This document shows, piece after piece, positions 1 to 13,293 of a stretch of DNA of 13,293 bases. The position numbers and the translations under genes are program-made. Position 1 is the stretch's first letter, and each line of letters opens with the position of its first letter. Below the pieces are notes generated by a model. The model worked only from the letters and a program-made list of their open reading frames with translations, was not told the origin of the DNA and did no database searches. The stretch lies in the IMG/VR virus record IMGVR_UViG_2563366821_000011, one strand, 5' to 3'. Source of the DNA: a virus (Duplodnaviria > Heunggongvirae > Uroviricota > Caudoviricetes).

Positions 1-669
1 ATGTGTGGACGCTTTGCCCAATCCCAAACGCGTGAAGATTACCTCGCGTTTCTCGCGGAAGATATTGAACGCGATATTCCCTACGATCCCGAACCTATTG
101 GCAGATACAACGTCGCGCCGGGAACCAAAGTCCTTCTGCTCAGTGAACGTGATGAACACCTTCATCTGGATCCGGTTTTCTGGGGATATGCTCCCGGATG
201 GTGGGATAAACCGCCGCTGATTAACGCCCGCGTAGAAACTGCCGCAACCAGTCGCATGTTTAAACCGCTCTGGCAACATGGTCGGGTAATATGCTTTGCC
301 GATGGCTGGTTTGAGTGGAAAAAAGAAGGCGACAAAAAACAGCCTTATTTTATCTATCGCGCTGATGGACAACCTGTTTTTATAGCCGCGATAGGTAGCA
401 CACCGTTTGAGCGCGGTGACGAAGCCGAAGGAGTTTTAATTGTCACTGCAGCAGCAGACCAGGGCCTGGTAGATATTCATGACCGCCGCCCGCTGGTACT
501 GTCGCCAGAAACTGCGCGGGAATGGATGCGGCAAGACATTGGTGGTAAAGAAGCCTCAGAAATCGCTACCAGAAGCTGTGTGCCAGCAAACCAGTTCATC
601 TGGCACCCTGTGTCGCGCGCGGTGGGTAATGTTAAAAACCAGGGCGCGGAGTTAATTCAACCTGTTTGA
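1..669 (+). CDS. yedK: SOS-response-associated peptidase (SRAP) / abasic-site processing protein YedK, 222 aa
   Basis: ORF opens with MCGRF (the N-terminal Cys2 nucleophile typical of SRAP proteins) and matches YedK of E. coli as I recall it. ATG at 1, TGA at 667-669. Confidence 0.9.
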   Translation: MCGRFAQSQTREDYLAFLAEDIERDIPYDPEPIGRYNVAPGTKVLLLSERDEHLHLDPVFWGYAPGWWDKPPLINARVETAATSRMFKPLWQHGRVICFADGWFEWKKEGDKKQPYFIYRADGQPVFIAAIGSTPFERGDEAEGVLIVTAAADQGLVDIHDRRPLVLSPETAREWMRQDIGGKEASEIATRSCVPANQFIWHPVSRAVGNVKNQGAELIQPV

Positions 670-864: not shown

Positions 865-887
865 GGTGATGCTGCCAACTTACTGAT
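865..887. repeat. IS1 left terminal inverted repeat (about 23 bp)
   Basis: GGTGATGCTGCCAACTTACTGAT, imperfectly complementary to 1610-1632. Confidence 0.85.
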
Positions 888-919
888 TTAGTGTATGATG
901 GTGTTTTTGAGGTGCTCCA

Positions 920-1195
920 GTGGCTTCTGTTTCTATCAGCTGTCCCTCCTGTTCAGCTACTGACGGGGTGGTGCGTAACGGCAAAAGCACCGCCGGACAT
1001 CAGCGCTATCTCTGCTCTCACTGCCGTAAAACATGGCAACTGCAGTTCACTTACACCGCTTCTCAACCCGGTACGCACCAGAAAATCATTGATATGGCCA
1101 TGAATGGCGTTGGATGCCGGGCAACAGCCCGCATTATGGGCGTTGGCCTCAACACGATTTTACGTCACTTAAAAAACTCAGGCCGCAGTCGGTAA
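920..1195 (+). CDS. insA: IS1 InsA (transposition repressor / N-terminal part of the InsAB transposase), 91 aa, GTG start
   Basis: Translation [22 protein letters not shown]... with a CxxC...CxxC zinc finger and an HTH. Stop TAA at 1193-1195. Confidence 0.9.
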
Positions 1196-1617
1196 CCTCG
1201 CGCATACAGCCGGGCAGTGACGTCATCGTCTGCGCGGAAATGGACGAACAGTGGGGCTATGTCGGGGCTAAATCGCGCCAGCGCTGGCTGTTTTACGCGT
1301 ATGACAGGCTCCGGAAGACGGTTGTTGCGCACGTATTCGGTGAACGCACTATGGCGACGCTGGGGCGTCTTATGAGCCTGCTGTCACCCTTTGACGTGGT
1401 GATATGGATGACGGATGGCTGGCCGCTGTATGAATCCCGCCTGAAGGGAAAGCTGCACGTAATCAGCAAGCGATATACGCAGCGAATTGAGCGGCATAAC
1501 CTGAATCTGAGGCAGCACCTGGCACGGCTGGGACGGAAGTCGCTGTCGTTCTCAAAATCGGTGGAGCTGCATGACAAAGTCATCGGGCATTATCTGAACA
1601 TAAAACACTATCAATAA
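1114..1617 (+). CDS. insB: IS1 InsB reading frame (catalytic part of the InsAB transposase, made by -1 frameshift at AAAAAAC 1171-1177)
   Basis: 167-aa ORF in the -1 frame relative to insA that overlaps the insA 3-prime end. The A6C slippery motif sits at 1171-1177. Confidence 0.85.
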
Positions 1618-1632
1618 GTTGGAGTCATTACC
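1610..1632. repeat. IS1 right terminal inverted repeat (about 23 bp)
   Basis: Reverse complement GGTAATGACTCCAACTTATTGAT matches the left IR at most positions. Confidence 0.85.
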
Positions 1633-1663
1633 TCTGATCCCATGGTAATTCAGCTGTTATTTT

Positions 1664-2650
1664 CTATTTAAGAATAAAACGGTATTTACTGTCAGGAGTG
1701 CTTTGCTGATCAAGTAGCAGTGAACGACATGGAGCAGTCAAAACCCGAGCATAACTACCATCAGGGCTTATGTTAATGTAACAAACCTTGCCCTTAACAC
1801 TATAATTTTCGGGGACGGATGCCTTTGCTGATACAGTAAATTTAAGGGTATGCCAGCCCGTTTTTTGCTTGTAGCTTGAAACCGAATGGAAATCATCTGA
1901 GTACTTATTTAACCCTGGAAACATGCTGCGCAGTGCGGGGATGGAATCTTCTATTATTTTATCGTTGGTTTTAATGTTAAAAACGCTGGTTTCAGTAGAA
2001 GCTACTGCTTTGGCATTTCCCCATTTACCAGCGAACACAATCATTCCCACGAAAAATATTGCTACAAGAACTAACACTCCCCCCAACACTACTACATGAG
2101 GCTTCCGGCTTCTGGTTGGTACAGTTGCGACTGATTTTGCACCGCTTTCCGATGGAGGTGATAGAGTTTTACTCTCATCACGAATATTCAGCAGATCATC
2201 AAAATAACCAAACACAGCCTGCAACTGCTCTTTGTCTAGGCCTTTAAGATGGGTTGTACCGAAATGCTTCAGACAGTATCTGTCACGGTCAAGACGATAC
2301 CCAGGGTCAGTAAGCGCCATTATTTTGCTGACCAGAAGATTACAGTCCTTCATATTCTGGATCTGTTGTGCATATCTCTGAAGGATCTCAACCGCACCAT
2401 GATAATCAGCCGCAGTCATTTCATTAACTGTTTTGGTATTAAGTTTCGTGTGGATCGTCATCCATAGCTCGCGCTTACTTTCCCCCAGATCAACCAATTC
2501 ATCCATCAATCTGTGTAAATCGCGTTTTTGCAGCAACGAAATTGGTTGCTGGGCCGAAGGAAGTATGTCAGCAGAATAGTTATGAATGGTAACATCACCG
2601 CTGACAACGTTACCCACATCCCCGTTAACTGTTTGCTTCTCTTTACTCAT
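1664..2650 (-). CDS. Hypothetical single-pass membrane protein, 328 aa, translationally coupled to the prophage repressor
   Basis: 987-bp ORF in an AT-rich region (about 37-40 percent GC by hand count). Its ATG overlaps the repressor stop in an ATGA. One strongly hydrophobic segment (VVVLGGVLVLVAIFFVGMIVFAG, about aa 185-207) is flanked by basic residues. The N-terminal motif GDVGNVVSGDVTI resembles the repressor C-terminal tail. I recognise no known family. Confidence 0.7.
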   Translation of the reverse strand: MSKEKQTVNGDVGNVVSGDVTIHNYSADILPSAQQPISLLQKRDLHRLMDELVDLGESKRELWMTIHTKLNTKTVNEMTAADYHGAVEILQRYAQQIQNMKDCNLLVSKIMALTDPGYRLDRDRYCLKHFGTTHLKGLDKEQLQAVFGYFDDLLNIRDESKTLSPPSESGAKSVATVPTRSRKPHVVVLGGVLVLVAIFFVGMIVFAGKWGNAKAVASTETSVFNIKTNDKIIEDSIPALRSMFPGLNKYSDDFHSVSSYKQKTGWHTLKFTVSAKASVPENYSVKGKVCYINISPDGSYARVLTAPCRSLLLDQQSTPDSKYRFILK

Positions 2651-3108
2651 CTTCTCTTGGTATTTTTGTTCATTATTCCACCTGTTCCTATGGTTACGTT
2701 ACCTTTGATAACATTCCCCAGAACATCTCCATGAATAACCTGTTCCGCCCGTTCTCTGGAGGAGCCAGTAGTCAAGGCCGACAAAACTGAACCTTTGACC
2801 TGTAATGGTGCCTGCCGGTAGTGCTGCAGTAACTCCATTTCATCACGTGATAAAGTTATACCTGATGACTCCCCGGTAAGAATGAACTGTACATTGGCCC
2901 CAATTCTTGCAAAGGCTGCAAGTAACTCACCTCCGGGAACAGCAACCCCTCGTTCATATTTCCCCCACATTTCTCTTGAAACGCCACAAAGGGCTGCTAC
3001 TTCAGCCTGCTTGAGTGATAACCGCGAACGCTCAGCTTTGAACCGCGACGCGCAAAGAGAATCAAAATTCACACAAACCTCATTGACAATGAGAACAATA
3101 GTTCTCAT
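2647..3108 (-). CDS. XRE/Cro-C1-type HTH transcriptional repressor (prophage c-repressor analogue), up to 153 aa
   Basis: HTH motif LSLKQAEVAALCGVSREMWGKYERG. Transcribed divergently from the early operon, as for Mu c. The start is uncertain: ATG at 3108 lies inside the operator palindrome and has no SD (possibly leaderless), while an in-frame GTG at codon 13 is preceded by GAGG. Confidence 0.75.
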   Translation of the reverse strand: MRTIVLIVNEVCVNFDSLCASRFKAERSRLSLKQAEVAALCGVSREMWGKYERGVAVPGGELLAAFARIGANVQFILTGESSGITLSRDEMELLQHYRQAPLQVKGSVLSALTTGSSRERAEQVIHGDVLGNVIKGNVTIGTGGIMNKNTKRR

Positions 3109-3111
3109 AAT
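3083..3111 (+). promoter_or_regulatory. Putative sigma70 early promoter (Pe-like): -35 TTGACA (3083-3088), 17-bp spacer, -10 CATAAT (3106-3111)
   Basis: Consensus -35, ideal 17-bp spacing and a 5/6 -10, lying 48 bp upstream of the ner-position gene whose SD is AAGGAG and ATG is at 3159. Confidence 0.5.
3089..3108. promoter_or_regulatory. Putative operator: perfect palindrome ATGAGAAC-N4-GTTCTCAT within the early promoter spacer
   Basis: 8-bp perfect inverted repeat arms with a 4-bp spacer between the -35 and -10 of the rightward promoter. It overlaps the first codons of the repressor ORF. Confidence 0.5.
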
Positions 3112-3158
3112 CTATCACATATAAAACAAACATCATTGCATCAACAAAGGAGACAACA

Positions 3159-3347
3159 ATGACTTCCGAACAAGTTAAAAATCTCTTCCGTCAGCGTGGT
3201 ATCACGTTTACCCGCTGGGCCGAAGAACACGGCTACAGCCGCAATGAGGTCTATCGTGTTCTCAATGGACAGACCAAAGCTCGTTACGGCAAAGCCCATG
3301 AAATTGCCGTAAAACTGGGATTAAAACCCACGTCAAATGCGGCATAA
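3159..3347 (+). CDS. Small HTH DNA-binding protein in the ner position (Ner/Cro-like early regulator), 62 aa
   Basis: Strong SD AAGGAG 7 nt upstream. HTH-like segment TRWAEEHGYSRNEVYRVLNGQ. First gene of the rightward operon, opposite the repressor. Not obviously similar in sequence to Mu Ner. Confidence 0.65.
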   Translation: MTSEQVKNLFRQRGITFTRWAEEHGYSRNEVYRVLNGQTKARYGKAHEIAVKLGLKPTSNAA

Positions 3348-3399
3348 ATTTTCCACATATGCAACAGGTTATCACATATTGCAAAAATGGAAATGTGAC

Positions 3400-3708
3400 A
3401 TGAGTAAAGTAAATATTTCCAGTTCTGGGACCCGCATCCTACGTGTACTCAAAGCTCTACGCGGTCATGCTCTGAACGGTGTTTCTAACGGTGAACTGGC
3501 ATCAGCCCTGGGGGAGTCCCCGGCGAATATCAATCGAGCACTTAATACCCTTATTGAAGAGGGACTGGCCATGAAATTAGAGAACGGACGTTTCGCACCG
3601 GGAATCCAGTTACTACAGATCGCCATGGCTCACAGTCACGAGATGGCGCGTGCACAGGATCGTATTAACGAAATCAACCAACGAGTTATTTCAGGTAGTC
3701 GTTTGTAA
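3400..3708 (+). CDS. Winged-HTH DNA-binding protein (IclR/MarR-like N-terminal domain only), about 103 aa
   Basis: Motif ILRVLKALRGHALNGVSNGELASALGESPANINRALNTLIEEGLAMK resembles an IclR-type wHTH. Start chosen at ATG 3400 (weak SD); an alternative in-frame ATG at 3337 overlaps the upstream gene. Confidence 0.55.
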   Translation: MSKVNISSSGTRILRVLKALRGHALNGVSNGELASALGESPANINRALNTLIEEGLAMKLENGRFAPGIQLLQIAMAHSHEMARAQDRINEINQRVISGSRL

Positions 3709-3718
3709 GGAGTAATCA

Positions 3719-4633
3719 ATGGGACGCACCAAATCACCCGTTAACACTGAACTGAATGTTGAGGTTCCGCTGTCAGATAACATCAATGTCAATTTGAACG
3801 CTATGACACAGCATCGCATGGAAATTATGCAGCAGTTTGGTGATGGACTGCCTTATGAACGTGATCGCATTGTTCACGAAGCACGTTTTTATATGGCGCA
3901 GAGTGCTGAATCTATGCTGGAAGCGGGTAAGCGGCTGATCATCTTAAAAGAAAATGAGCCACACGGTGATTTTACAAACATTTTAGAAAATGAACTCGGA
4001 CTTGCACCACAAGTTGCTCGCCGCATGATGCAAGCCAGTATGAAGTTTTTGGGAGAAGGTGATGAGCCAACAAAACGCTCAACGTTGAGCGTTTTGGGGA
4101 AAGCCAAACTGTACGACCTGATGGTTCTGGATAATGAAGAACTTGATGAATTGGCCGACGGCGGCACAGTTGCCGGCCTGACGCTTGACGACGTTGATCG
4201 CATGTCAGTACGTGAATTGCGTCAGGCCCTGCGCGAAGCGCGCGAAACCAACGCAGCACAACAGCGCGTACTCGCCGACAAAAATGAAAAAATAGATTCA
4301 CTCTCCACCAGACTGGAGAAGAAATCCCGTATTCAGCCGCCTGAGCCTGATGAGGAGGTTAAGAAGCTGCGGGCGGAAGTAACAGCATTAGCGGTTGAGG
4401 CGGAATCTGCTATCGCCGTCCGACTGTCCAGCGCTTTTGAGACGCTGTGCGCATATTGTGCTGAAAACATGATTGATACCCCCAGAGACTTCATGGCAGG
4501 CCTGGTCTGTCAACTGGAAAGCACAGCGCGTAGCCTGCGCTCCACATTTGACCTGCCGGACGAGCCAACAGGCAATGCAGCGCCTTCATGGCTGACTGAG
4601 CCGACGCCACAGATTAACGGGCTGGAGGCATAA
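3719..4633 (+). CDS. Hypothetical early protein, DUF3102-like N-terminal region plus coiled-coil and acidic C-terminus, 304 aa
   Basis: SD TAAGGAG 6 nt upstream of ATG. Motif HGDFTNILENELGLAPQVARRMMQASMKF resembles what I recall of DUF3102. Stop is 3 nt before the transposase ATG. Confidence 0.6.
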   Translation: MGRTKSPVNTELNVEVPLSDNINVNLNAMTQHRMEIMQQFGDGLPYERDRIVHEARFYMAQSAESMLEAGKRLIILKENEPHGDFTNILENELGLAPQVARRMMQASMKFLGEGDEPTKRSTLSVLGKAKLYDLMVLDNEELDELADGGTVAGLTLDDVDRMSVRELRQALREARETNAAQQRVLADKNEKIDSLSTRLEKKSRIQPPEPDEEVKKLRAEVTALAVEAESAIAVRLSSAFETLCAYCAENMIDTPRDFMAGLVCQLESTARSLRSTFDLPDEPTGNAAPSWLTEPTPQINGLEA

Positions 4634-4636
4634 CCA

Positions 4637-6406
4637 ATGAATGCTGCCCTGACTGAACGACTGGTTTATGTCGCCCGCGCGGCACGTGACGCGGGGCATG
4701 GTAAACGCGGTGCAATATACGACGCTGCCTGTGCTGAACTTGGCATGTCCCGCGCCACTCTGCTGCGCAGGCTGAAGGAGGTCTCTGTGACTGATAAACG
4801 CAAAAAACGCGCCGATGCCGGGCGCAGCGCCCTGACCCGCGACGAAGCCGCGCTGATATCTGCCACACTGCGTGAGGCCACCCGCAAGAACGGTAAGCGT
4901 CTCTATTCCATCGCAGATGCAGTGGAAACCCTACGGGCTAACGGCTTTATCACCGCAGGCAGAACAGATGAAACCACCAGTGAGTTTTTCCCGTTGTCTG
5001 AAGATGCCATCAGCCGTGCTCTGCGTAACTATGGCCTGCACCCGGAACAACTGGATGCCCCTGCACCACATACCGAAGTGGCCAGTCTGCATCCCAATCA
5101 TGTCTGGCAGATTGACGCCTCACTCTGCACGCTTTACTACCTGAGCAATGGACATAAAGGGCTGCAGGTGATGGACAGCGCGAAGTTCTACAAGAACAAG
5201 CCCGCTAACCTTGCCCGTATCGCCAGTGACCGCGTGTGGAGTTACGAGATTACCGACCATGCCAGCGGCTGGATTTACGTTGAGTATGTGACGGGCGCGG
5301 AATCAGGTGAGAACCTGTGTTCTGTGCTTATCAACGCCATGCAGGAGCGTGGCGGCGCAGACGTGCTGCACGGCGTGCCGAAAATACTCTATCTCGACCC
5401 CGGCTCGGCAAACACCGCGGGTATGACGAAAAACATGTGCCGCTCACTGGGCATCGACCTGATAGCGCACAAGCCGCATAACGCCCGCGCCACCGGACAG
5501 GTGGAAAAGGCGCGTGACATTATCGAACGCAAGCTGGAGCCGGGGCTGAAGTTCCGGCCGGTTCACAGTCTGGAAGAACTCAACGCGCTGGCCGCGAAAT
5601 GGCGCAGCCACTTTAACGCCACGGCTGTTCACAGCCGCCACGGTAAAACCCGCACGGATATCTGGCTGAAGATTACTGCTGAGCAGCTGAAAAAAGCGCC
5701 TTCCGTTGAGGTATGTCGTGAACTGGCTGTGGCGGCACCAGAACTCCGCAAAGTCACGCCAAAACTTCGTGTCTCGTTCCGGGGCACTGAATTTGACGTA
5801 TCAACGGTACCGGGCGTACTGGTTGGTGAAAAACTGATGATTACCCGTAACCCATGGCGCAGCGATGTGGCACAGGTGGTTCTGACCGGTGAGGACGGCC
5901 ACGAGACGTTCTTCCTGGTCGAAGAGGTCAGAAAGAACGAGTTTGGCTTTGCTGAAGGCGCGGCGGTATTTGGCGAAAGTTACAAAGCCCTGCCGGAAAC
6001 CTCGGCACAGATGGCGGCAAAAGAAACTGAAGCGCTGGTTACCGGTACAGACAACGCTGCAGATGCAGCCGCCGCACGCAAGGCGAAGGCGCTGCCGTTC
6101 GGCGGGCGGCTTGACCCGTATAAACATATCGACGACACCACACTTCCGGCCTATATGCCGAAGCGTGGTCAGGCCTCTGACGTACGCGGGCCGCGCACTG
6201 AACAACGTCCCATGACTCATGTGGAGGCCGCGAAAGCCCTGCGCGATAAGTTCAGCGCCGACGGCCTTACCTGGACGCCGGAACATTACCGCCAGTTAAC
6301 GGCACAGTACCCGGACGGCGTACCGGAAGCTGCACTGGATGAAGTCATGGCCACGCTGACCACGCCGGCACGCAGCAGTGTTATCAGCATTGTTAACGGC
6401 AACTGA
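4637..6406 (+). CDS. Mu-like DDE transposase (A protein), 589 aa
   Basis: N-terminal HTH, then an rve-type catalytic core with D160 (HVWQIDAS), D254 (LYLDPGS) and E290 (ATGQVEKA; D-35-E spacing). Located immediately upstream of the AAA+ B gene. Confidence 0.9.
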   Translation: MNAALTERLVYVARAARDAGHGKRGAIYDAACAELGMSRATLLRRLKEVSVTDKRKKRADAGRSALTRDEAALISATLREATRKNGKRLYSIADAVETLRANGFITAGRTDETTSEFFPLSEDAISRALRNYGLHPEQLDAPAPHTEVASLHPNHVWQIDASLCTLYYLSNGHKGLQVMDSAKFYKNKPANLARIASDRVWSYEITDHASGWIYVEYVTGAESGENLCSVLINAMQERGGADVLHGVPKILYLDPGSANTAGMTKNMCRSLGIDLIAHKPHNARATGQVEKARDIIERKLEPGLKFRPVHSLEELNALAAKWRSHFNATAVHSRHGKTRTDIWLKITAEQLKKAPSVEVCRELAVAAPELRKVTPKLRVSFRGTEFDVSTVPGVLVGEKLMITRNPWRSDVAQVVLTGEDGHETFFLVEEVRKNEFGFAEGAAVFGESYKALPETSAQMAAKETEALVTGTDNAADAAAARKAKALPFGGRLDPYKHIDDTTLPAYMPKRGQASDVRGPRTEQRPMTHVEAAKALRDKFSADGLTWTPEHYRQLTAQYPDGVPEAALDEVMATLTTPARSSVISIVNGN

Positions 6407-6416
6407 GGAGGAAAAC

Positions 6417-7583
6417 ATGCTGGTACTGAAGCAGCAACTGAAAGAGGCCCGTATCCCACAGGCGGTGGTGGCGAGAGCTGTCGATGTTTCTGAGGCCACG
6501 CTGGCCCAGATTGTGAATCATAACGCGTGGCCCCGCACCAGCCCCGGAGAAGTGCGCCGGCGTCTTGCGTCCTGGCTGGAAAGTCAGGGGATTGATACAA
6601 CGAAGAGTTTTGATGCTGTACAGGGCGCAGCCACGCCCCGTACAGCGGGTACCACAGATAAAACGAGCCTCAGTGAGGAAGAGAATATGTTACTCAAAAA
6701 ACAGGTGTTATTTCCAGCAACCAAAAAAGCGTTTGGTCTTTTCCGTGACCCGTTCGCCGATGAAGCCATGCAGGGTTCTGATGATGTGTTCACCACCCCG
6801 GACATTCGCTACGTGCGTGAGGCGTTGTACCAGACAGCCCGTCATGGTGGGTTTATGGCCGTCATCGGTGAGTCCGGTGCGGGTAAATCCACGCTGCGCC
6901 GCGACCTGACTGAACGTATCAACCGCGAGAATGCGCCGGTAATTGTTATCGAGCCATACATCATCGCTATGGAAGACAACGATGTGAAAGGGAAAACCCT
7001 GAAGGCAGCAGCGATTGCCGAAGCCATTATCAGTACCATCGCACCACTGGAAAGCATCAGACGCAGTCAGGACGCCCGCTTTCGCCAGTTGCATCGCGTC
7101 CTGAAAGACAGCAGCCAGGCGGGGTTCAGCCACGTTTTGGTGATTGAGGAGGCCCACAGTCTGCCCATTCCGACACTGAAACACCTCAAACGCTTTTTTG
7201 AGCTGGAGTCCGGTTTCAAAAAACTGCTGTCCATCGTGCTGATTGGCCAGCCGGAACTGGCGACAAAACTGTCTGAACGCAATATGGAAGTCCGTGAAGT
7301 CGTTCAGCGTTGTGAGGTGGTCGAACTTCTGCCTCTGGACAATAACCTTGAAGAATTTCTGACGTTCAAACTGCAACGGGCCGGTAAACAACTGACGGAC
7401 ATTATGGACGCCAGCGCAGTGGATGCCATACGTGCCCGCCTGAGCAATCCGGGAAGTCATCGTAAAAATATGGTCAGCCTGCTGTATCCGCTGGCCGTCA
7501 GTAACCTGGTGATAGCCGCCATGAATCTGGCCGCTGAAATCGGGGTTCCACAGGTCAACGCTGACGTTGTCAAAGGGGTTTAA
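6417..7583 (+). CDS. Mu B-like AAA+ ATPase (transposition target DNA activator), 388 aa
   Basis: SD GAGGAGG directly upstream. N-terminal HTH (QAVVARAVDVSEATLAQIVN), Walker A GESGAGKST and Walker B VLVIEEAH. An in-frame internal ATG with its own SD lies at 6687. Confidence 0.85.
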   Translation: MLVLKQQLKEARIPQAVVARAVDVSEATLAQIVNHNAWPRTSPGEVRRRLASWLESQGIDTTKSFDAVQGAATPRTAGTTDKTSLSEEENMLLKKQVLFPATKKAFGLFRDPFADEAMQGSDDVFTTPDIRYVREALYQTARHGGFMAVIGESGAGKSTLRRDLTERINRENAPVIVIEPYIIAMEDNDVKGKTLKAAAIAEAIISTIAPLESIRRSQDARFRQLHRVLKDSSQAGFSHVLVIEEAHSLPIPTLKHLKRFFELESGFKKLLSIVLIGQPELATKLSERNMEVREVVQRCEVVELLPLDNNLEEFLTFKLQRAGKQLTDIMDASAVDAIRARLSNPGSHRKNMVSLLYPLAVSNLVIAAMNLAAEIGVPQVNADVVKGV

Positions 7584-7585
7584 TA

Positions 7586-7855
7586 ATGAAATCCACCACA
7601 GGTATCAACCAGCAAATCAGCAAAGTGCAGTCAGCCATTATGGCGCTTAAGGCGACGAACACGGATGTACAAAGCATCACCATCAGGGGTAACAAACCTG
7701 TCATCCGCGTTTCCCGGAGTGCGCATTGCATGCGCATGCTTGAGCAGGGAAAGGCCTGTTATCTGTATACCGGACATGACCACAGGGGATATTTCCGTCA
7801 GGGCGTTTTCGAACTGCACGGCTGTCGCGTCGTGTGGCCGGAATCTTTGTGGTAA
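7586..7855 (+). CDS. Hypothetical early protein, 89 aa
   Basis: ATG 3 nt after the B stop, with SD-like AAGGGG upstream. No recognisable motif. Confidence 0.55.
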   Translation: MKSTTGINQQISKVQSAIMALKATNTDVQSITIRGNKPVIRVSRSAHCMRMLEQGKACYLYTGHDHRGYFRQGVFELHGCRVVWPESLW

Positions 7856-7882
7856 TCAGCACAACAGGAGGAGTCATAAAAT

Positions 7883-8413
7883 ATGGCAAAAAGTACAAAA
7901 GGGGCAAAACGTATCAAAGCCGCAGCAGCACTCTGGGTGCCGGGGACACGCGAAGAGGTCATTGAGGGAATCAGACTGCTTGGTGACGCGCAACGTGAAC
8001 TGGTCAGGGCTGAAACAGAAATGAATGACACCATTGGCGACATCACTGCACGTTATGCCCCGCTCACCGAGAGCCTGAAAAAACGCATGGCCGAACTGCA
8101 GTCCGGTATCCAGACATGGTGTGAGGCGCACCGTGATGAACTGACCGGCAACGGGAAGGTGAAGTTCGCTAACCTCACCACCGGCGAGGTGCAGTGGCGA
8201 AACCGTCCGCCGTCAGTCAGCATTCGCGGGGCGGATAATGTCATTGAACTGCTGAGACGTCTGGGGCTTGAGCGCTTTATTCGTGTAAAGGAGGAAATAA
8301 ATAAAGATGCCATTCTGAATGAAAAAGAGGCCGTGAAAAATATTCCCGGTATTTCCATTAAAAGCGACATTGAGGATTTTTCAATAATTCCTTTTGAGCA
8401 GGATGTGCAGTAA
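7883..8413 (+). CDS. gam: Host-nuclease inhibitor Gam (Mu Gam family, Ku-like DNA-end binding), 176 aa
   Basis: Strong SD AGGAGG. Co-linear with Mu Gam as I recall it: MAKxxKRIKxAAAxxVP..., TEMNDxI, WCEAxRDELT, PPSVSIRGxDxV, GLxRFIRxKxEINKxAIL and C-terminal EDFSIIPFEQ. Confidence 0.9.
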   Translation: MAKSTKGAKRIKAAAALWVPGTREEVIEGIRLLGDAQRELVRAETEMNDTIGDITARYAPLTESLKKRMAELQSGIQTWCEAHRDELTGNGKVKFANLTTGEVQWRNRPPSVSIRGADNVIELLRRLGLERFIRVKEEINKDAILNEKEAVKNIPGISIKSDIEDFSIIPFEQDVQ

Positions 8414-8510
8414 ACACACCACGTTAATTATTTAATAAAAACATTTTCTTTTTTATTCCGGCGTCAGCGCCGTGGGCTTCTGCACGCCGGAAACAGAGGA
8501 GAATTAAATT

Positions 8511-8705
8511 ATGATATTTAAATGTATTCAGTGCGAGAGGGATATAACAGCCCTGCGTTTTCACAGCGCCATCGCCGTGATGTCCGGTAAGTATCACATA
8601 CCTGCAGTACGTGTCACCCTGGTCTGCCCGTACTGCAGCCAGCATTTTTCGGCGGACGTGCCCGTCATGGAATTCTCCCGCCCTGACAGGGAGGACGCGC
8701 AATGA
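8511..8705 (+). CDS. Small zinc-ribbon protein, 64 aa
   Basis: SD GAGGAG. Two CxxC pairs (C5/C8 and C39/C42). Its stop overlaps the next start in an ATGA. Confidence 0.55.
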   Translation: MIFKCIQCERDITALRFHSAIAVMSGKYHIPAVRVTLVCPYCSQHFSADVPVMEFSRPDREDAQ

Positions 8706-8974
8706 TTACCCCACAGGAAGCACGACAGCGCACCCGAACCCTTGTTGAACACTATGTCAACGAGTGTGAATGCCGCGACCTCACCGATGTGAATCACGTC
8801 CTGACGGCGCTAATCAGCATGGCCACACAGGCCATTGTGGCGACCAACGGAAAGGAGGCTGCCCTGCAGGTACTGATGAACACACTCACCCACACGGCAG
8901 AGCATGAGGTGCCGTACCGGATGGAAACCACTGCAGAAGGCGGCCTGCACATCACCGTCAGCCGGAAGCACTGA
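8702..8974 (+). CDS. Hypothetical early protein, 90 aa
   Basis: ATGA overlap with the upstream ORF. Codon usage matches its neighbours. Confidence 0.5.
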   Translation: MITPQEARQRTRTLVEHYVNECECRDLTDVNHVLTALISMATQAIVATNGKEAALQVLMNTLTHTAEHEVPYRMETTAEGGLHITVSRKH

Positions 8975-8983
8975 GGGCGCGGC

Positions 8984-9280
8984 ATGACACGAAACACCGA
9001 ACTCACCCGCACCGCCCTCTACCGTCTGGCCCTGCAGCGTTTCGGGCCGGACGCACAGGCCCTGAAACTGGCAGAAGAGGCCGCTGAACTGGCGGCCAGT
9101 GCCGCCCGCAACCTGAACGGACAGGGCAGCGAAAGTGACCTCGCGGCAGAGCTGGCAGACGTGGAAATCATGACAGAGCAACTGCGCCTTCAGGGGATGG
9201 ACCGGCTGATTGACTTCCACAAACAGAAAAAACTGGAACGTCTGGCTGCACGACTGGGCGTGATTTACACGAACGAGTAA
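8984..9280 (+). CDS. MazG-like nucleoside triphosphate pyrophosphohydrolase domain protein, 98 aa
   Basis: Motifs KLAEEAAELAASAARN and AAELADVEIMTEQL resemble the acidic EExxE and E-x-x-D metal-binding helices of small MazG/HisE-like NTP-PPases. SD GAGGG upstream. Confidence 0.6.
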   Translation: MTRNTELTRTALYRLALQRFGPDAQALKLAEEAAELAASAARNLNGQGSESDLAAELADVEIMTEQLRLQGMDRLIDFHKQKKLERLAARLGVIYTNE

Positions 9281-9294
9281 CCGGGAGGCATTCA

Positions 9295-9510
9295 ATGGCT
9301 GACATACTCAGGGAAATCACCGCATGGACACTGATTCTTACTGGCCTGGCGACATGCCTCAGTGCGGGGGCAGCCCTGGCTGCCCTGCTGATGCACATAA
9401 CAACACAGTGGTTATGGGAAAAGCTTAAAGCAGCATACAGCCTGAAAGAGCTGTCCGACGCTGTCCGGGCATGGAAACGGCAGAAAAATACCGGAGATAC
9501 AGAACAATGA
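9295..9510 (+). CDS. Small membrane protein, 71 aa
   Basis: SD GGGAGG. Hydrophobic helix ITAWTLILTGLATCLSAGAALAALLM. Its stop overlaps the next start in an ATGA. Confidence 0.5.
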   Translation: MADILREITAWTLILTGLATCLSAGAALAALLMHITTQWLWEKLKAAYSLKELSDAVRAWKRQKNTGDTEQ

Positions 9511-10190
9511 CAGACCAGAATAAACACATTGAGAAACTGAAAAAGTTGCTGGCGCTGGCCGCATCCGGCAACCCGCACGAGGCCGCTCTGGCACTGCGCC
9601 GAGCCCGTAAACTGATGGATGTTCACGGCATCACACATTCCGACATTGCTATGAGTGATATTGATGAAACCATCAGTCACTACTGGCCGACAGGCAGTCT
9701 CCGTCCACCGCGCTACATGCTGGGCCTGATGAACATCATCCGCGAGGTATTTGGTGTTAACTCCATCATTCACCCCGGCACGCACCCGTCTGTGGGGTTC
9801 TACGGCAACCGGGAACGTGCGGCACTGGCTGCATACACCTGGGAAGTGCTGGCCCGTCAGCTGAAAAAGGCGCGTCAGCAGTATATCAGTGCACAGAACA
9901 AAAGAATAAAAACCGCCACCCGCACCAGCCGTGGAGACCAGTTTGCCGAAGGCTGGGTGCTGGCCGTTATCAGTGAAATACAGTCCTTTGCCCTGACCGA
10001 TGATGAGCGTGAACTGATGCAGCAGTGGCTGGAACATAAATACCCGCAGACGCAAACCACCAGGGCGCGTAAACCGGGAAGAAGCCGCAATGGCGACGCC
10101 TCGCGCTATGCGGGGTTTCGTGAAGGGCAGAACGTCAGACTGCACCGCCCGGTCAGTGGGCAGGAACAACAGAAACTGGAGGCCAGATGA
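9507..10190 (+). CDS. Hypothetical early protein with DUF2786-like N-terminal motif, 227 aa
   Basis: N-terminus IEKLKKLLALAASGNPHEAALALRRARKLMDVHGI matches the conserved DUF2786 motif as I recall it. ATGA overlap with the upstream gene, SD GGAGA. Confidence 0.6.
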   Translation: MTDQNKHIEKLKKLLALAASGNPHEAALALRRARKLMDVHGITHSDIAMSDIDETISHYWPTGSLRPPRYMLGLMNIIREVFGVNSIIHPGTHPSVGFYGNRERAALAAYTWEVLARQLKKARQQYISAQNKRIKTATRTSRGDQFAEGWVLAVISEIQSFALTDDERELMQQWLEHKYPQTQTTRARKPGRSRNGDASRYAGFREGQNVRLHRPVSGQEQQKLEAR

Positions 10191-10417
10191 TTACGCTATC
10201 AGGTAACAGCCGGAAATTAAAAGCCTGCCGAATATCTGCCAGATACCTTTTTGCCCGCGCCTTTTTTAAGAACGTCAGGCCGGGGATCACAATTGGTGTT
10301 ATTGCCGGACGCGAACAGGTTGAAAAATACATGTCAGGTGCATGGTGGAATAACGACCCTGTCATTGCTGCCCGTAATATTCATATCAGTTGGGGGGATA
10401 TTCAGAATGACGGCTGA
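10187..10417 (+). CDS. Hypothetical small protein, 76 aa
   Basis: ATGA overlap with the upstream gene; basic N-terminus. Weakly supported. Confidence 0.4.
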   Translation: MITLSGNSRKLKACRISARYLFARAFFKNVRPGITIGVIAGREQVEKYMSGAWWNNDPVIAARNIHISWGDIQNDG

Positions 10418-10622
10418 ATCTGTTGTATGTGCCCTGTTCTGGTATTGTTTTGTCGGTTGGTGTACTGCTGAACTGCACCGCCGTTCAGGGTTTTATTCAC
10501 GTTACAGTGGTGCCGGCTACTGGATTAGCTGGTCGGTGATGTTCCTGTGCTGGCCTGTGGCGCTTCCTTTATATGTCGATTATATCGGTGGCGCAGGTAA
10601 AAGGAGCAACGATGATGACTAA
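10407..10622 (+). CDS. Small membrane protein, 71 aa
   Basis: SD GGGGGGA 8 nt upstream of ATG. Two hydrophobic, Trp/Cys-rich segments (VVCALFWYCFVGWC and WISWSVMFLCWPVALPLYV). Confidence 0.45.
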   Translation: MTAESVVCALFWYCFVGWCTAELHRRSGFYSRYSGAGYWISWSVMFLCWPVALPLYVDYIGGAGKRSNDDD

Positions 10623-11064
10623 ACAACGTCTTATCCAGCTCATTCATATTGCCCGTAATGAACTGGGTATGGATGAAGACACCTACCGCCAGATGTTACA
10701 GGGGCTGACCGGTAAAGCCTCAACCAAAGGAATGGATACCACACAACTAAACTGCGTGCTGGAATCCATGAAAAGGAAAGGCTTTCGCGTTAAGCCTGCC
10801 AGAAAAGCCAGCTCCGGTTTACCGCTGGATAACCATCCGCAGTCCAGGAAAATCCGTGCGCTATGGCTTGAAATGGCTGCTGCCGGCATTGTTCGTGACC
10901 GTTCAGAAAATGCATTAGCGCGGTGGATCAAGCGGGAAACGGGCATCAGCGCCCTGCGCTGGCTCAATACTGAACAGGCAAGCAGTGTTATTGAGAAACT
11001 GAAGAAGTGGCAGCGCAGAGCTGCGGGAGTAAAACATGAGCGACCTGAATCAGTTTCGAAGTAA
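10612..11064 (+). CDS. gemA: GemA-like protein (Mu gp16 family, DUF1018), 150 aa
   Basis: SD AAGGAG 5 nt upstream. N-terminal motif KQRLIQLIHIARNELGMDEDTYRQMLQGLTGKAS is typical of Mu gp16/GemA-like proteins. Lies immediately upstream of mor, as in Mu. Confidence 0.7.
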   Translation: MMTKQRLIQLIHIARNELGMDEDTYRQMLQGLTGKASTKGMDTTQLNCVLESMKRKGFRVKPARKASSGLPLDNHPQSRKIRALWLEMAAAGIVRDRSENALARWIKRETGISALRWLNTEQASSVIEKLKKWQRRAAGVKHERPESVSK

Positions 11065-11434
11065 AGGGCCGGAACTCCTGGTGGAACTGGCACAGCATAC
11101 CTCTGAGACCGTTCGCGAGATTATTGATATTGAGCCCGCAATTGCCGACCAGATTGGTCAGGCCGTCGCGAACCGAATGATGCAGGTCTGGGGCGGGCAA
11201 AACGTTTATTTCCCGATGGGCATGGTATGGAAGGTCAGTCAGCGCGACCGGGAAATCTTCAGGGAGTTTAACGGACGCAACCACCACGAACTGGCCCGCA
11301 ATTTTGGTGTTTCGCTTCAGTGGGTCTACAGCGTGGTTAAGCGGGTCAGAAAAGAAGAACTGGATCGGATGCAGGGCAGGTTGTTTGATGAAGATCTGCC
11401 AGAGGAGACGAAAGACGTTAACAAATCCAGATAA
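11036..11434 (+). CDS. mor: Mor-family transcriptional activator (middle operon regulator), 132 aa
   Basis: Motifs GGQNVYFP and FNGRNHHELARNFGVSLQWVYSVVKRVRK match the Mor/C family HTH region. Last gene of the early operon. Confidence 0.85.
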   Translation: MSDLNQFRSKGPELLVELAQHTSETVREIIDIEPAIADQIGQAVANRMMQVWGGQNVYFPMGMVWKVSQRDREIFREFNGRNHHELARNFGVSLQWVYSVVKRVRKEELDRMQGRLFDEDLPEETKDVNKSR

Positions 11435-11479
11435 TTCCTGCTTGTTAAAGTCCTTTCAAAAATCTCCTTATTGTATAAG

Positions 11480-11511
11480 AGCACGGTAGACCCTTTACCG
11501 TGCTTTTTTTA
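11480..11511 (+). terminator. Rho-independent terminator-like hairpin (stem AGCACGGTA / TACCGTGCT, 7-nt loop, T-run)
   Basis: Perfect 9-bp inverted repeat immediately followed by 6-7 T, 46 bp after the mor stop. It could also serve as a dyad protein-binding site. Confidence 0.6.
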
Positions 11512-11548
11512 TGCTCTCTATGTAATATTCAGGATGCAGGGAGAAAAT

Positions 11549-12181
11549 ATGTTTGACGTTTCGTTATTAAATCTGCCATGGGCAACACTGGTGACCCTGA
11601 CCAGTGGCTATATTGGGTATTTTATTGCGAATGTGGGGCTGAAGGATCACCACAAACCCATTGAGGTGACTTTTTCTTCGCTGATTTTTGGCCTGACAGC
11701 AATGATGGCTTACCAGGCTGTTATGTGGGCAGGTCTGAATGCCTGGCTGGCAACCCCCCCAGCACTTCTGTGTGCCGTTACATGCGGTGCGTGGTGGCGC
11801 AGGTACGGTCGCAAATGGATGTACAGATTACTGTGGAATAATGATATTTCATGGTCTGACAATACCAGCTCAGCATGGCAGGCAATGTTTGATCAAACAG
11901 GCTTCAGCGTCACCGAGGTCAGAGTGATTCTTCGCGATGGTTCCGGTATGATGTCACGGCTGCCAGGGAACTTTGAAGAGTGGCCTAACGGTCCGTTTAC
12001 CCTGGGAAATAAAGGCGATATGGTTCTTTACGTCACGCACAGCAGCCCTTCAGGAAGTAACGAATGGGAAGAGTATAAAGGCGTGGTTGATAAGTACTGG
12101 GGAGCTCTGGCAACCTATATTCCAGCAGATCAGATTGCCAGAGTGGAGATCAGGCGCGTTCGTGCAACGAACGATGAATGA
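11549..12181 (+). CDS. Hypothetical membrane protein (three N-terminal TM helices plus a soluble C-terminal domain of about 120 aa), 210 aa
   Basis: SD GGGAGA 7 nt upstream of ATG. Three hydrophobic segments in the first 85 aa, followed by RRYGRK. Occupies the position where Mu carries C. No family recognised. Confidence 0.65.
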   Translation: MFDVSLLNLPWATLVTLTSGYIGYFIANVGLKDHHKPIEVTFSSLIFGLTAMMAYQAVMWAGLNAWLATPPALLCAVTCGAWWRRYGRKWMYRLLWNNDISWSDNTSSAWQAMFDQTGFSVTEVRVILRDGSGMMSRLPGNFEEWPNGPFTLGNKGDMVLYVTHSSPSGSNEWEEYKGVVDKYWGALATYIPADQIARVEIRRVRATNDE

Positions 12182-12343
12182 TGTTTATTTTTTCCCTGGA
12201 GCAGGAGCTGCCGGCATAGTGGTTTTATTGGCAGAGGAAGACGATTCTCCTTTTCTACCGGAATCGCGCTCGAACGTCACAATGTGCTTGCTTTTGGGCT
12301 TTTCTGAGTAATCCAGGCTGTCATGCTTATTGTTTTGAGTAGT

Positions 12344-12421
12344 CATTGGAATCATCCTTTTTGTTACGGGTCATGTTTCAGCAAACTCGATTCTAAGTTG
12401 CCAGGAAGGATGATTTCAATG
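12344..12421. repeat. Inverted repeat, 16 bp arms (CATTGGAATCATCCTT / AAGGATGATTTCAATG, 15/16 match) separated by 46 bp
   Basis: Direct reading of the sequence: arms at 12344-12359 and 12406-12421. Confidence 0.5.
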
Positions 12422-12499
12422 CCCGACTTATCTATCGTATAGCGGAAAAGAATTTCAGTTCTGTTCACCAGAACCCATGTTAACCCACTCCAATTCGTT

Positions 12500-12532
12500 A
12501 TTTATCTCACGGATCCCCCTTCATTTATCTCA
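12500..12532. repeat. Direct repeat ATTTATCTCA x2 (12500-12509 and 12523-12532), 23-bp register, next to the dgcQ junction
   Basis: Exact 10-bp direct repeat, each followed by a GATC-containing segment, lying just inside the foreign DNA. Confidence 0.4.
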
Positions 12533-13293
12533 TGTCTGATCAACCAGTAGTTATTACTGTCTACCGGAACACTGACGGTAACCTGCGGTTCAGTATTGCT
12601 GGCGTGTTCCGGTTGCGAAGTGAACCAGCGTACCGCGCGGTGACGATTTTCTCGTTGTGAATGGCCGATAAACCAGGGTTGGGTGACATAGCCGTAATAA
12701 CGCGTTGGTACATTGCGCGTAAACAAGGTCGGCAGCGTCGAAACGTAAAATCCAGCACGCGAGACATACACCGCCTGTTCAACCATCGACGAGGAGTTGT
12801 GCGCCAGTCGCAGCAAGTAACCAACTTCCAGTGCAGCGGTAATTTCATTGTCGAGGCTTTCATTTTCGCGAGACAGGAGATTCCCCTCGCTGACTAATGC
12901 ATCCGATACGCCATTGACTGGCAGGGTGCGCCGTCGGTTGAGTTCGATTTGCCAGGTGTGCTCGTCGCGATGCTGTTCGAACTCGGTTACGGCATTACGC
13001 AGAGAGGTGAAATCCAGTGGCGCCACGAGAGCTTCGCGCATGCCATTACGCAAAAAGATCAGTTTGTCGACGTTATACTGCAAATGCTTATCGAGCGCGT
13101 TGGCTACGTTTTCCAGATGATTACGCTGGCTGGAGATATAGGCATCTTCCAGCACCACCACTTCACGCCAGGTGAGCAAGGTGGAAAAAAGCAATACCAC
13201 GATAAAGCAGAGATTAACGATATGACCAGGCCCCAGGCGGCGTGCGAGTTTTTTCAACCAGCTCTGGTTTTCCATTTTTGTCTCGTGCTGCAC
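12502..13293 (-). pseudogene. dgcQ: 5-prime fragment of a DgcQ/YedQ-like membrane-anchored diguanylate cyclase gene (N-terminal TM and periplasmic sensor domain only; GGDEF domain absent)
   Basis: The ORF starts at the window edge (GTG) and reads [15 protein letters not shown]..., with a signal-anchor TM ([18 protein letters not shown]) and a periplasmic-type domain. It ends after 263 aa with a short unrelated tail ([13 protein letters not shown]) and has no GGDEF motif. Identity is from memory of E. coli YedQ (about 564 aa). Confidence 0.55.

Follow-up and report, generated by a model that had tools for sequence, protein, structure and literature searches.

An IS1-anchored deletion downstream of yedK truncates a BcepMu-type transposable prophage in dgcQ of Escherichia coli

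Results

Organization of the yedK-dgcQ locus

The DNA analysed here, hereafter the window, is a stretch of 13,293 bp which begins exactly at the start codon of yedK (position 1) and ends exactly at the start codon of dgcQ (position 13293), evidently having been cut on gene boundaries. At its left, yedK (1–669, plus strand) encodes an SOS response-associated peptidase (Pfam SRAP, E = 1e-50) and is 100% identical to yedK of E. coli SCU-172 and of ATCC 11775. The intergenic DNA that follows (670–864), ending in ACCACCTCA (856–864), is 100% identical to that of ATCC 11775, which is free of IS1 at this site and matches the window perfectly as far as ACCACCTCA, after which it continues with ATTACATTAA. 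The left junction of IS1 therefore consists of native DNA downstream of yedK. To its right lie an intact IS1 (865–1632, plus strand), a 10,910-bp remnant of a BcepMu-type transposable prophage (1633–12542, minus strand) and the 5' fragment of dgcQ (12543–13293, minus strand).

Membership in IS1 was judged by a length of about 768 bp and imperfect terminal inverted repeats of about 23 bp (GGTGATGCTGCCAACTTACTGAT...), and both were found at 865–1632. The element, of the IS1A type, measures 768 bp; its left repeat (IRL, 865–887) starts with GGTGATGCTGCC at 865, its right repeat (IRR, 1610–1632) ends with CATTACC at 1632, and the two are complementary at 18 of 23 bases. The insA gene (920–1195) and the insB' frame (1114–1617) are accompanied by the A6C frameshift site, TTAAAAAACTC, at about 1168. 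Over all 768 bp the element is 100% identical to the yedK-side copy of SCU-172, MSB1_4I and AF3 (OZ547117), three complete E. coli genomes sharing an identical yedK-IS1 segment, and in SCU-172 this copy is annotated as an IS1A family transposase with a programmed frameshift.

A simple insertion would be recognized by a direct target duplication, usually of 9 bp, and IS1 at 865–1632 lacks one. The 9 bp on its left, ACCACCTCA, and the 9 bp on its right, TCTGATCCC (1633–1641), agree at two of nine positions, which is chance level. Moreover, no k-mer of at least 5 bases is common to both 30-bp flanks, so that shifting the boundaries of IS1 recovers no duplication. The initial annotation had already described the two 9-bp flanks as different and had counted 31 bp between IS1 and the stop codon of the neighbouring membrane protein gene, and both observations were reproduced (2/9 matches with no help from alternative boundaries; a gap at 1633–1663 before the stop codon of a minus-strand ORF of 328 aa). 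Two further repeats were considered and dismissed as chance: an 8-mer, AATAAAAC, occurring at 850–857 and 1673–1680, which does not adjoin the ends of IS1, and an extension of the inverted repeat to 864/1633.

The prophage remnant belongs to the BcepMu family

The plus strand of the window corresponds to the bottom strand of BcepMu, and tblastn gave collinear matches, in inverted order, to BcepMu gp17, gp16, gp12, gp10, gp09, gp08, gp02 and gp01. The remnant comprises the early arm and the lysogeny region, equivalent to BcepMu genes 1–18, and its gene order is that of BcepMu and of the 37.5-kb prophage lying between the two halves of dgcQ in SCU-172.

Central to the assignment is an intact transposase gene (4637–6406, plus strand; 589 aa) coding for a Tn552-type rve/DDE enzyme homologous to BcepMu gp09. 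Its only Pfam match is rve, and it is 68% identical to gp09, 99% to the transposase of Escherichia phage PhiKM (Bcepmuvirus) and 93.5% to that of Klebsiella phage KP12. Next to it, an intact gene (6417–7583, plus strand) encodes the AAA+ transposition protein, a functional equivalent of Mu B from the BcepMu gp08/ExeA family (Pfam AAA_22; 59% identity to gp08; PHROG 296). Compared with SCU-172, the transposase is unchanged in protein sequence and the B gene shows no nucleotide difference at all. Further along the plus strand are the gene for the Gam host-nuclease inhibitor (7883–8413; Pfam Phage_Mu_Gam, E = 2e-40) and a GemA/gp16-like gene with a Mor-type late activator gene (10615–11434), the last two identified through tblastn matches to BcepMu gp02 and gp01, PHROG 532 and the SCU-172 annotation, and representing the last conserved genes before the phage end. 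Of the features used to define Bcepmuvirus, two were found in this part of the analysis, namely a Tn552/IS1604-type rve transposase with an AAA+ partner (homologues of gp09 and gp08) and the two-arm layout, collinear here from gp17 to gp01 and present in full in SCU-172. Those of Muvirus, a MuA-type transposase and a repressor adjoining a left end with L1–L3 sites, were not.

On the minus strand, nearest to IS1, is the repressor operon. It includes a helix-turn-helix repressor homologous to BcepMu gp17 (2647–3108; Pfam HTH_31 and HTH_3; 38.5% identity) and, as its last gene, in the position of gp18, the gene for a single-pass membrane protein of 328 aa and unknown function (1664–2650; PHROG 10002). 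The latter has one predicted transmembrane helix, matches only PHROG 10002 and, weakly, the precomputed Pfam family Flk_N, and is found in 11,828 indexed blocks of the assembly collection. No similarity to BcepMu gp18 was detectable by tblastn against BcepMu, despite the same position. Co-transcribed with the repressor, it is a candidate exclusion or immunity factor.

In BcepMu, genes 1–13 are on the bottom strand, the lysogeny control region (genes 16 and 17) is at the interface of the two arms, and the lysis cassette and morphogenesis genes follow on the top strand (PMC2771037). Its transposase, of the Tn552/IS1604 type, is unrelated to MuA, and its termini carry CA dinucleotides (PMC2771037; PMC2628397). 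In BcepMu, as in 97 complete E. coli genomes carrying this prophage, the repressor and membrane genes (gp17 and gp18 positions) lie about 10 kb into the phage genome, where the leftward early arm meets the rightward arm of lysis and structural genes. In intact copies, as seen in every contig among the matches listed, what comes after the 328-aa gene is a 193-aa ORF and the genes for a holin and an SLT endolysin. Because the repressor operon is internal in the BcepMu family, no phage end was ever to be expected beside IS1.

This bears directly on the geometry assumed in the initial annotation, in which IS1 had clipped the left end (attL, next to the repressor) of a Mu-type prophage, most of which would remain rightward. 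The repressor operon is indeed directed toward IS1, and 1633–1663 carries no end repeats, both of which such a geometry would explain. However, the transposase has no MuA-specific Pfam domains and resembles gp09, the gene order with its internal lysogeny region is that of BcepMu, intact copies run from the 328-aa gene into lysis and structural genes with the repressor about 10 kb from the nearest end, and a true terminus closes the remnant at 12542. On the strength of the transposase family, the gene order and the intact relatives we reject the Mu-type layout, which we regard as extremely improbable.

One phage end and one copy of the target duplication survive in dgcQ

The prophage interrupts dgcQ, and the fragment left in the window (12543–13293, minus strand) holds the first 250 codons, coding for the CHASE7 sensor part (Pfam CHASE7; aligned to dgcQ of ATCC 11775); in the relatives, too, dgcQ is annotated as partial. 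A single copy of a 6-bp target duplication, reading ACCAGT on the plus strand and ACTGGT in the dgcQ sense, remains at 12543–12548, and both copies are present in SCU-172. When the dgcQ halves were joined with one ACTGGT, the product matched intact dgcQ of K-12, ATCC 11775, O157 and others at 100%, which confirms the positions of the prophage ends and the 6-bp duplication. Aligned to ATCC 11775, the segments of the window overlap by 6 bp. As a side observation, the truncated dgcQ frame reads 13 codons into the phage end (12502–12542, minus strand) up to a stop codon at 12502–12504 and, if expressed, would yield a CHASE7-only product of 263 aa.

An intact phage terminus, TGA-N8-GAGATAAAT-N14-GAGATAAAT, occupies 12500–12542 (minus strand), with two repeats behind the terminal TG which, judged by their sequence and placement, are presumed to be transposase-binding sites. 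The end motif, TGATGCGCCGCGCGATAAAT, had its sole match in the window here, against 0 expected by chance even with 3 mismatches. The same motif is found at both prophage/dgcQ junctions of SCU-172, where the prophage is bounded by TGATCAGACATGAGATAAATGAAGGGGGATCCGTGAGATAAAT on one side and TGATGCGCCGCGCGATAAATGCACTCTATCTTGTGCGATAAAT on the other, read inward, with ACTGGT flanking both; the window has one end and one copy. The ends of the BcepMu record share this architecture in the same register, that is, TGA and then two GATAWWT repeats 23 bp apart. At 1633–1663 or elsewhere near IS1 the motif was absent, with 3 mismatches allowed. The lack of Mu-like terminal transposase-binding repeats noted in the initial annotation holds beside IS1, whereas the conclusion drawn from it, that a left end had been removed there, does not hold for a BcepMu-type phage, and the end surviving at 12500–12542 had gone unnoticed. 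What the remnant retains is the mor/transposase-side end; the tail-side end is lost.

Relatives carry 30,258 bp of additional DNA at the right end of IS1

In a blastn comparison with SCU-172, positions 1–1632 of the window matched at 100%, and the alignment of 1633–13293 resumed 30,258 bp further with 4 substitutions, all silent or intergenic. MSB1_4I and AF3 have the layout of SCU-172 with the same 30,259-bp coordinate offset on the same strand; just 2 substitutions, silent ones within the transposase gene, set them apart from the window. The additional DNA of the relatives begins at the base right after the IRR of IS1, exactly where in the window the last IRR base is joined to internal prophage DNA (1632/1633). 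The missing 30,258 bp fall into a chromosomal part of 3,677 bp (a 90-bp fliR remnant, rcsA, dsrB, yodD, yedP and the 3' 948 bp of dgcQ) and a prophage part of 26,581 bp, two thirds of the element, with all lysis, head and tail genes and the tail-side phage end. The complete lysis, head and P2-like tail modules that the window lacks are found in this prophage DNA of the relatives. Since relatives with the same IS1 and the same left junction carry contiguous extra DNA starting from the end of the IRR, the window represents an IS1-anchored deletion. In this respect the initial annotation, which had taken IS1 for something other than a simple insertion and for the mark of a deletion, is borne out by all three relatives.

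The two positions separating the window from MSB1_4I and AF3, 4933 and 6058, are silent third-position transitions in the transposase gene, at which all comparable copies (the three relatives and seven further prophage copies) have G and C; an eighth further copy, L012, was out of register, and the numbers are too small to interpret.

In 97 complete E. coli genomes, where it occurs at many sites in the chromosome, the 1 kb of prophage DNA around the deletion endpoint is uninterrupted, and the breakpoint sequence is likewise continuous in 9 of 9 places among the contig matches listed for the 328-aa protein. In 27 complete genomes, homology to the side of the 328-aa gene (88.8%) stops 20–23 bp inside the retained side of the breakpoint, i.e. 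at about 1653–1656 of the window (about 16473–16476 of L002), which places a mosaic module joint of the phage family almost at the deletion endpoint.

The junction itself had 0 matches in GTDB species representatives and in metagenome contigs, and was present in none of 5,426 complete E. coli genomes. Among the matches listed, contigs encoding the 328-aa protein showed only intact arrangements. The junction rests on one assembly, joined across a multicopy insertion sequence.

Origin of the deletion

The deletion starts at the terminal nucleotide of the IRR, which suggests an IS1-dependent event. We consider it probable that a single step sufficed, namely intramolecular transposition, abortive or replicative, of the IS1 downstream of yedK. 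In such an event, the transposase would nick the IRR end (1632) of the yedK-side IS1 and join it to a target some 30 kb along the chromosome, within the 90 bp that separate the 328-aa gene from the gene after it in the BcepMu-type prophage of dgcQ. Everything in between would be lost, and IS1 would stay in place with a new right flank and, for that reason, with no target duplication. An abortive or intramolecular transposition model of this kind for IS1 adjacent deletions is cited in PMC10569738. Our comparison establishes directly what the IS1 is, where exactly the deletion begins and ends, how the locus is arranged in three relatives that represent its state before the deletion, to which family the phage belongs and how its ends are built, and that only one end survives; from these we infer the single transposase-mediated step.

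The final sequence by itself fits one-step transposition and recombination between two IS1 copies equally, and the latter had been put forward in the initial annotation. A second IS1 in the same orientation would have entered the prophage spacer, duplicating TCTGATCCC, and then recombined with the yedK copy. This route predicts exactly the junction seen, and partners would be plentiful, as SCU-172 contains at least 40 matching places, mostly IS1 copies. Against it, two events are needed instead of one, and the required intermediate, an IS1 at that prophage site, was found in 0 of 5,426 complete E. coli genomes, where five matches at ≥80% coverage were chance extensions of 84–89%. In addition, the IS1 of the window is 100% identical over 768 bp to the yedK copy, though other copies may be so too. 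The suggestion therefore accounts for the junction but finds no intermediate in those genomes, and we regard it as possible, if doubtful.

An assembly chimera, in which the SCU-172 layout and a separate prophage-borne IS1 were both present and their flanks were joined through a collapsed IS1, is in our view highly unlikely. In its favour, IS1 is multicopy, the window is not from a RefSeq complete assembly, and neither the complete genomes nor the GTDB species representatives nor the metagenome contigs contain the junction. Yet a chimera would still need a new IS1 at this exact prophage site, seen nowhere else, and the contig passes through IS1 with unique sequence on both sides. Furthermore, the flanks are only 30 kb apart and in the orientation of a deletion, an outcome rarely to be expected if any of dozens of IS1 copies had been joined at random.

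The yedK-side IS1 has a history of adjacent deletions

In SCU-172, MSB1_4I and AF3 the right flank of IS1 is already non-matching, being CGTTAATTG inside fliR. Relative to ATCC 11775, these genomes lack 14,999 bp between the region downstream of yedK and the 3' end of fliR, a loss covering a porin gene, ybcM, ybcL, emrE and fliE through most of fliR. A yedK-side IS1 that is devoid of a duplication in the relatives after this 14,999-bp loss points to a copy with a history of adjacent deletions. No ancestor with an intact 9-bp duplication at this IS1 was found, all three genomes with IS1 there having fliR on the right. We infer that the deletion in the window came after the 15-kb deletion of the relatives, as a second loss starting at that IS1 end; on the alternative reading, it would be a single larger loss that arose independently from an undeleted IS1 insertion. 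Given the loss of fliE to fliR, the lineage of the window should be non-flagellate.

Discussion

The arrangement described here is a textbook, well-understood IS1 adjacent deletion that truncates a prophage of known family, and it involves no new mechanism. Its outcome is a defective prophage which keeps immunity and transposition genes. The case is of use in typing strains and curating prophages. Mu-type and Tn552-type DDE transposases require two ends for transpososome assembly. Left with a single end and deprived of its lysis, head and tail genes, the remnant would be unable to transpose or to form particles. The initial annotation had also called the element immobile despite intact A and B ORFs, a conclusion that holds, though owing to the single end and the lack of late genes and not to an end lost beside IS1. 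For annotation, the practical consequence is that a "Mu-like" prophage such as this one needs the BcepMu map and not the Mu map, which would turn an internal junction into a seemingly lost end and hide the real one at 12500–12542.

Seen across the strains, one IS1 copy appears to have eroded the yedK-dgcQ region stepwise in a human-associated E. coli lineage, taking first the flagellar fli operon and then rcsA, yedP, dgcQ and the prophage. Besides the fli operon, which went earlier, the host is now without rcsA, dsrB, yodD, yedP and the catalytic part of dgcQ. It is conceivable, but in our judgement improbable, that the deletion reflects selected domestication rather than neutral decay. The deletion strips the prophage of all that makes it lethal (lysis, virion genes, one transposition end). 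Were it selected, the retained repressor and 328-aa protein could still provide immunity or exclusion against BcepMu-type phages, which are common in E. coli, and the loss of rcsA and the rest of dgcQ would alter capsule and cellulose regulation in a lineage already aflagellate. Under the same assumption, the two window-specific silent substitutions in the transposase gene might hint at continued constraint.

The classical descriptions of IS1 adjacent deletions come from the gal region of E. coli K-12. The present case agrees with them in the intact IS1 left in place, the start exactly at the terminal base of IS1, the nearby target, the absence of a flanking target duplication and a size in the typical range of tens of kilobases, and we see nothing mechanistically different. 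What sets it apart are the endpoints, from downstream of yedK into a BcepMu-type prophage in dgcQ, a combination found in none of the 5,426 complete E. coli genomes.

With BcepMu, PhiKM and KP12 the remnant shares the Tn552-type rve transposase, its AAA+ partner and Mor and GemA genes nearest the end. BcepMu also has the repressor at the arm interface, TG...CA termini and two GATAWWT repeats in the same register, as in the remnant's family, but only genes 1–18 and one end are left in the window. A further difference concerns the tail fibres: BcepMu is reported to be without an inversion system (PMC2771037), whereas the intact E. coli relatives have a Gin-type invertase and an apparently invertible tail-fibre segment. 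At the tail-side end of the SCU-172 prophage (L002, 41229–42999), a Gin-type recombinase gene lies by oppositely oriented tail-fibre and tail-fibre-assembly genes, and this region looks like an invertible host-range segment.

The likeness to Mu (Muvirus) is of a more general kind and extends to replication by transposition, homologues of Gam, Mor and GemA, TG/CA termini and a short target duplication. This duplication is 6 bp long in the present prophage and 5 bp in Mu. MuA is unrelated to the transposase of the remnant, and in the remnant's family the early and late arms run in opposite directions, which is why the repressor does not lie beside a phage end.
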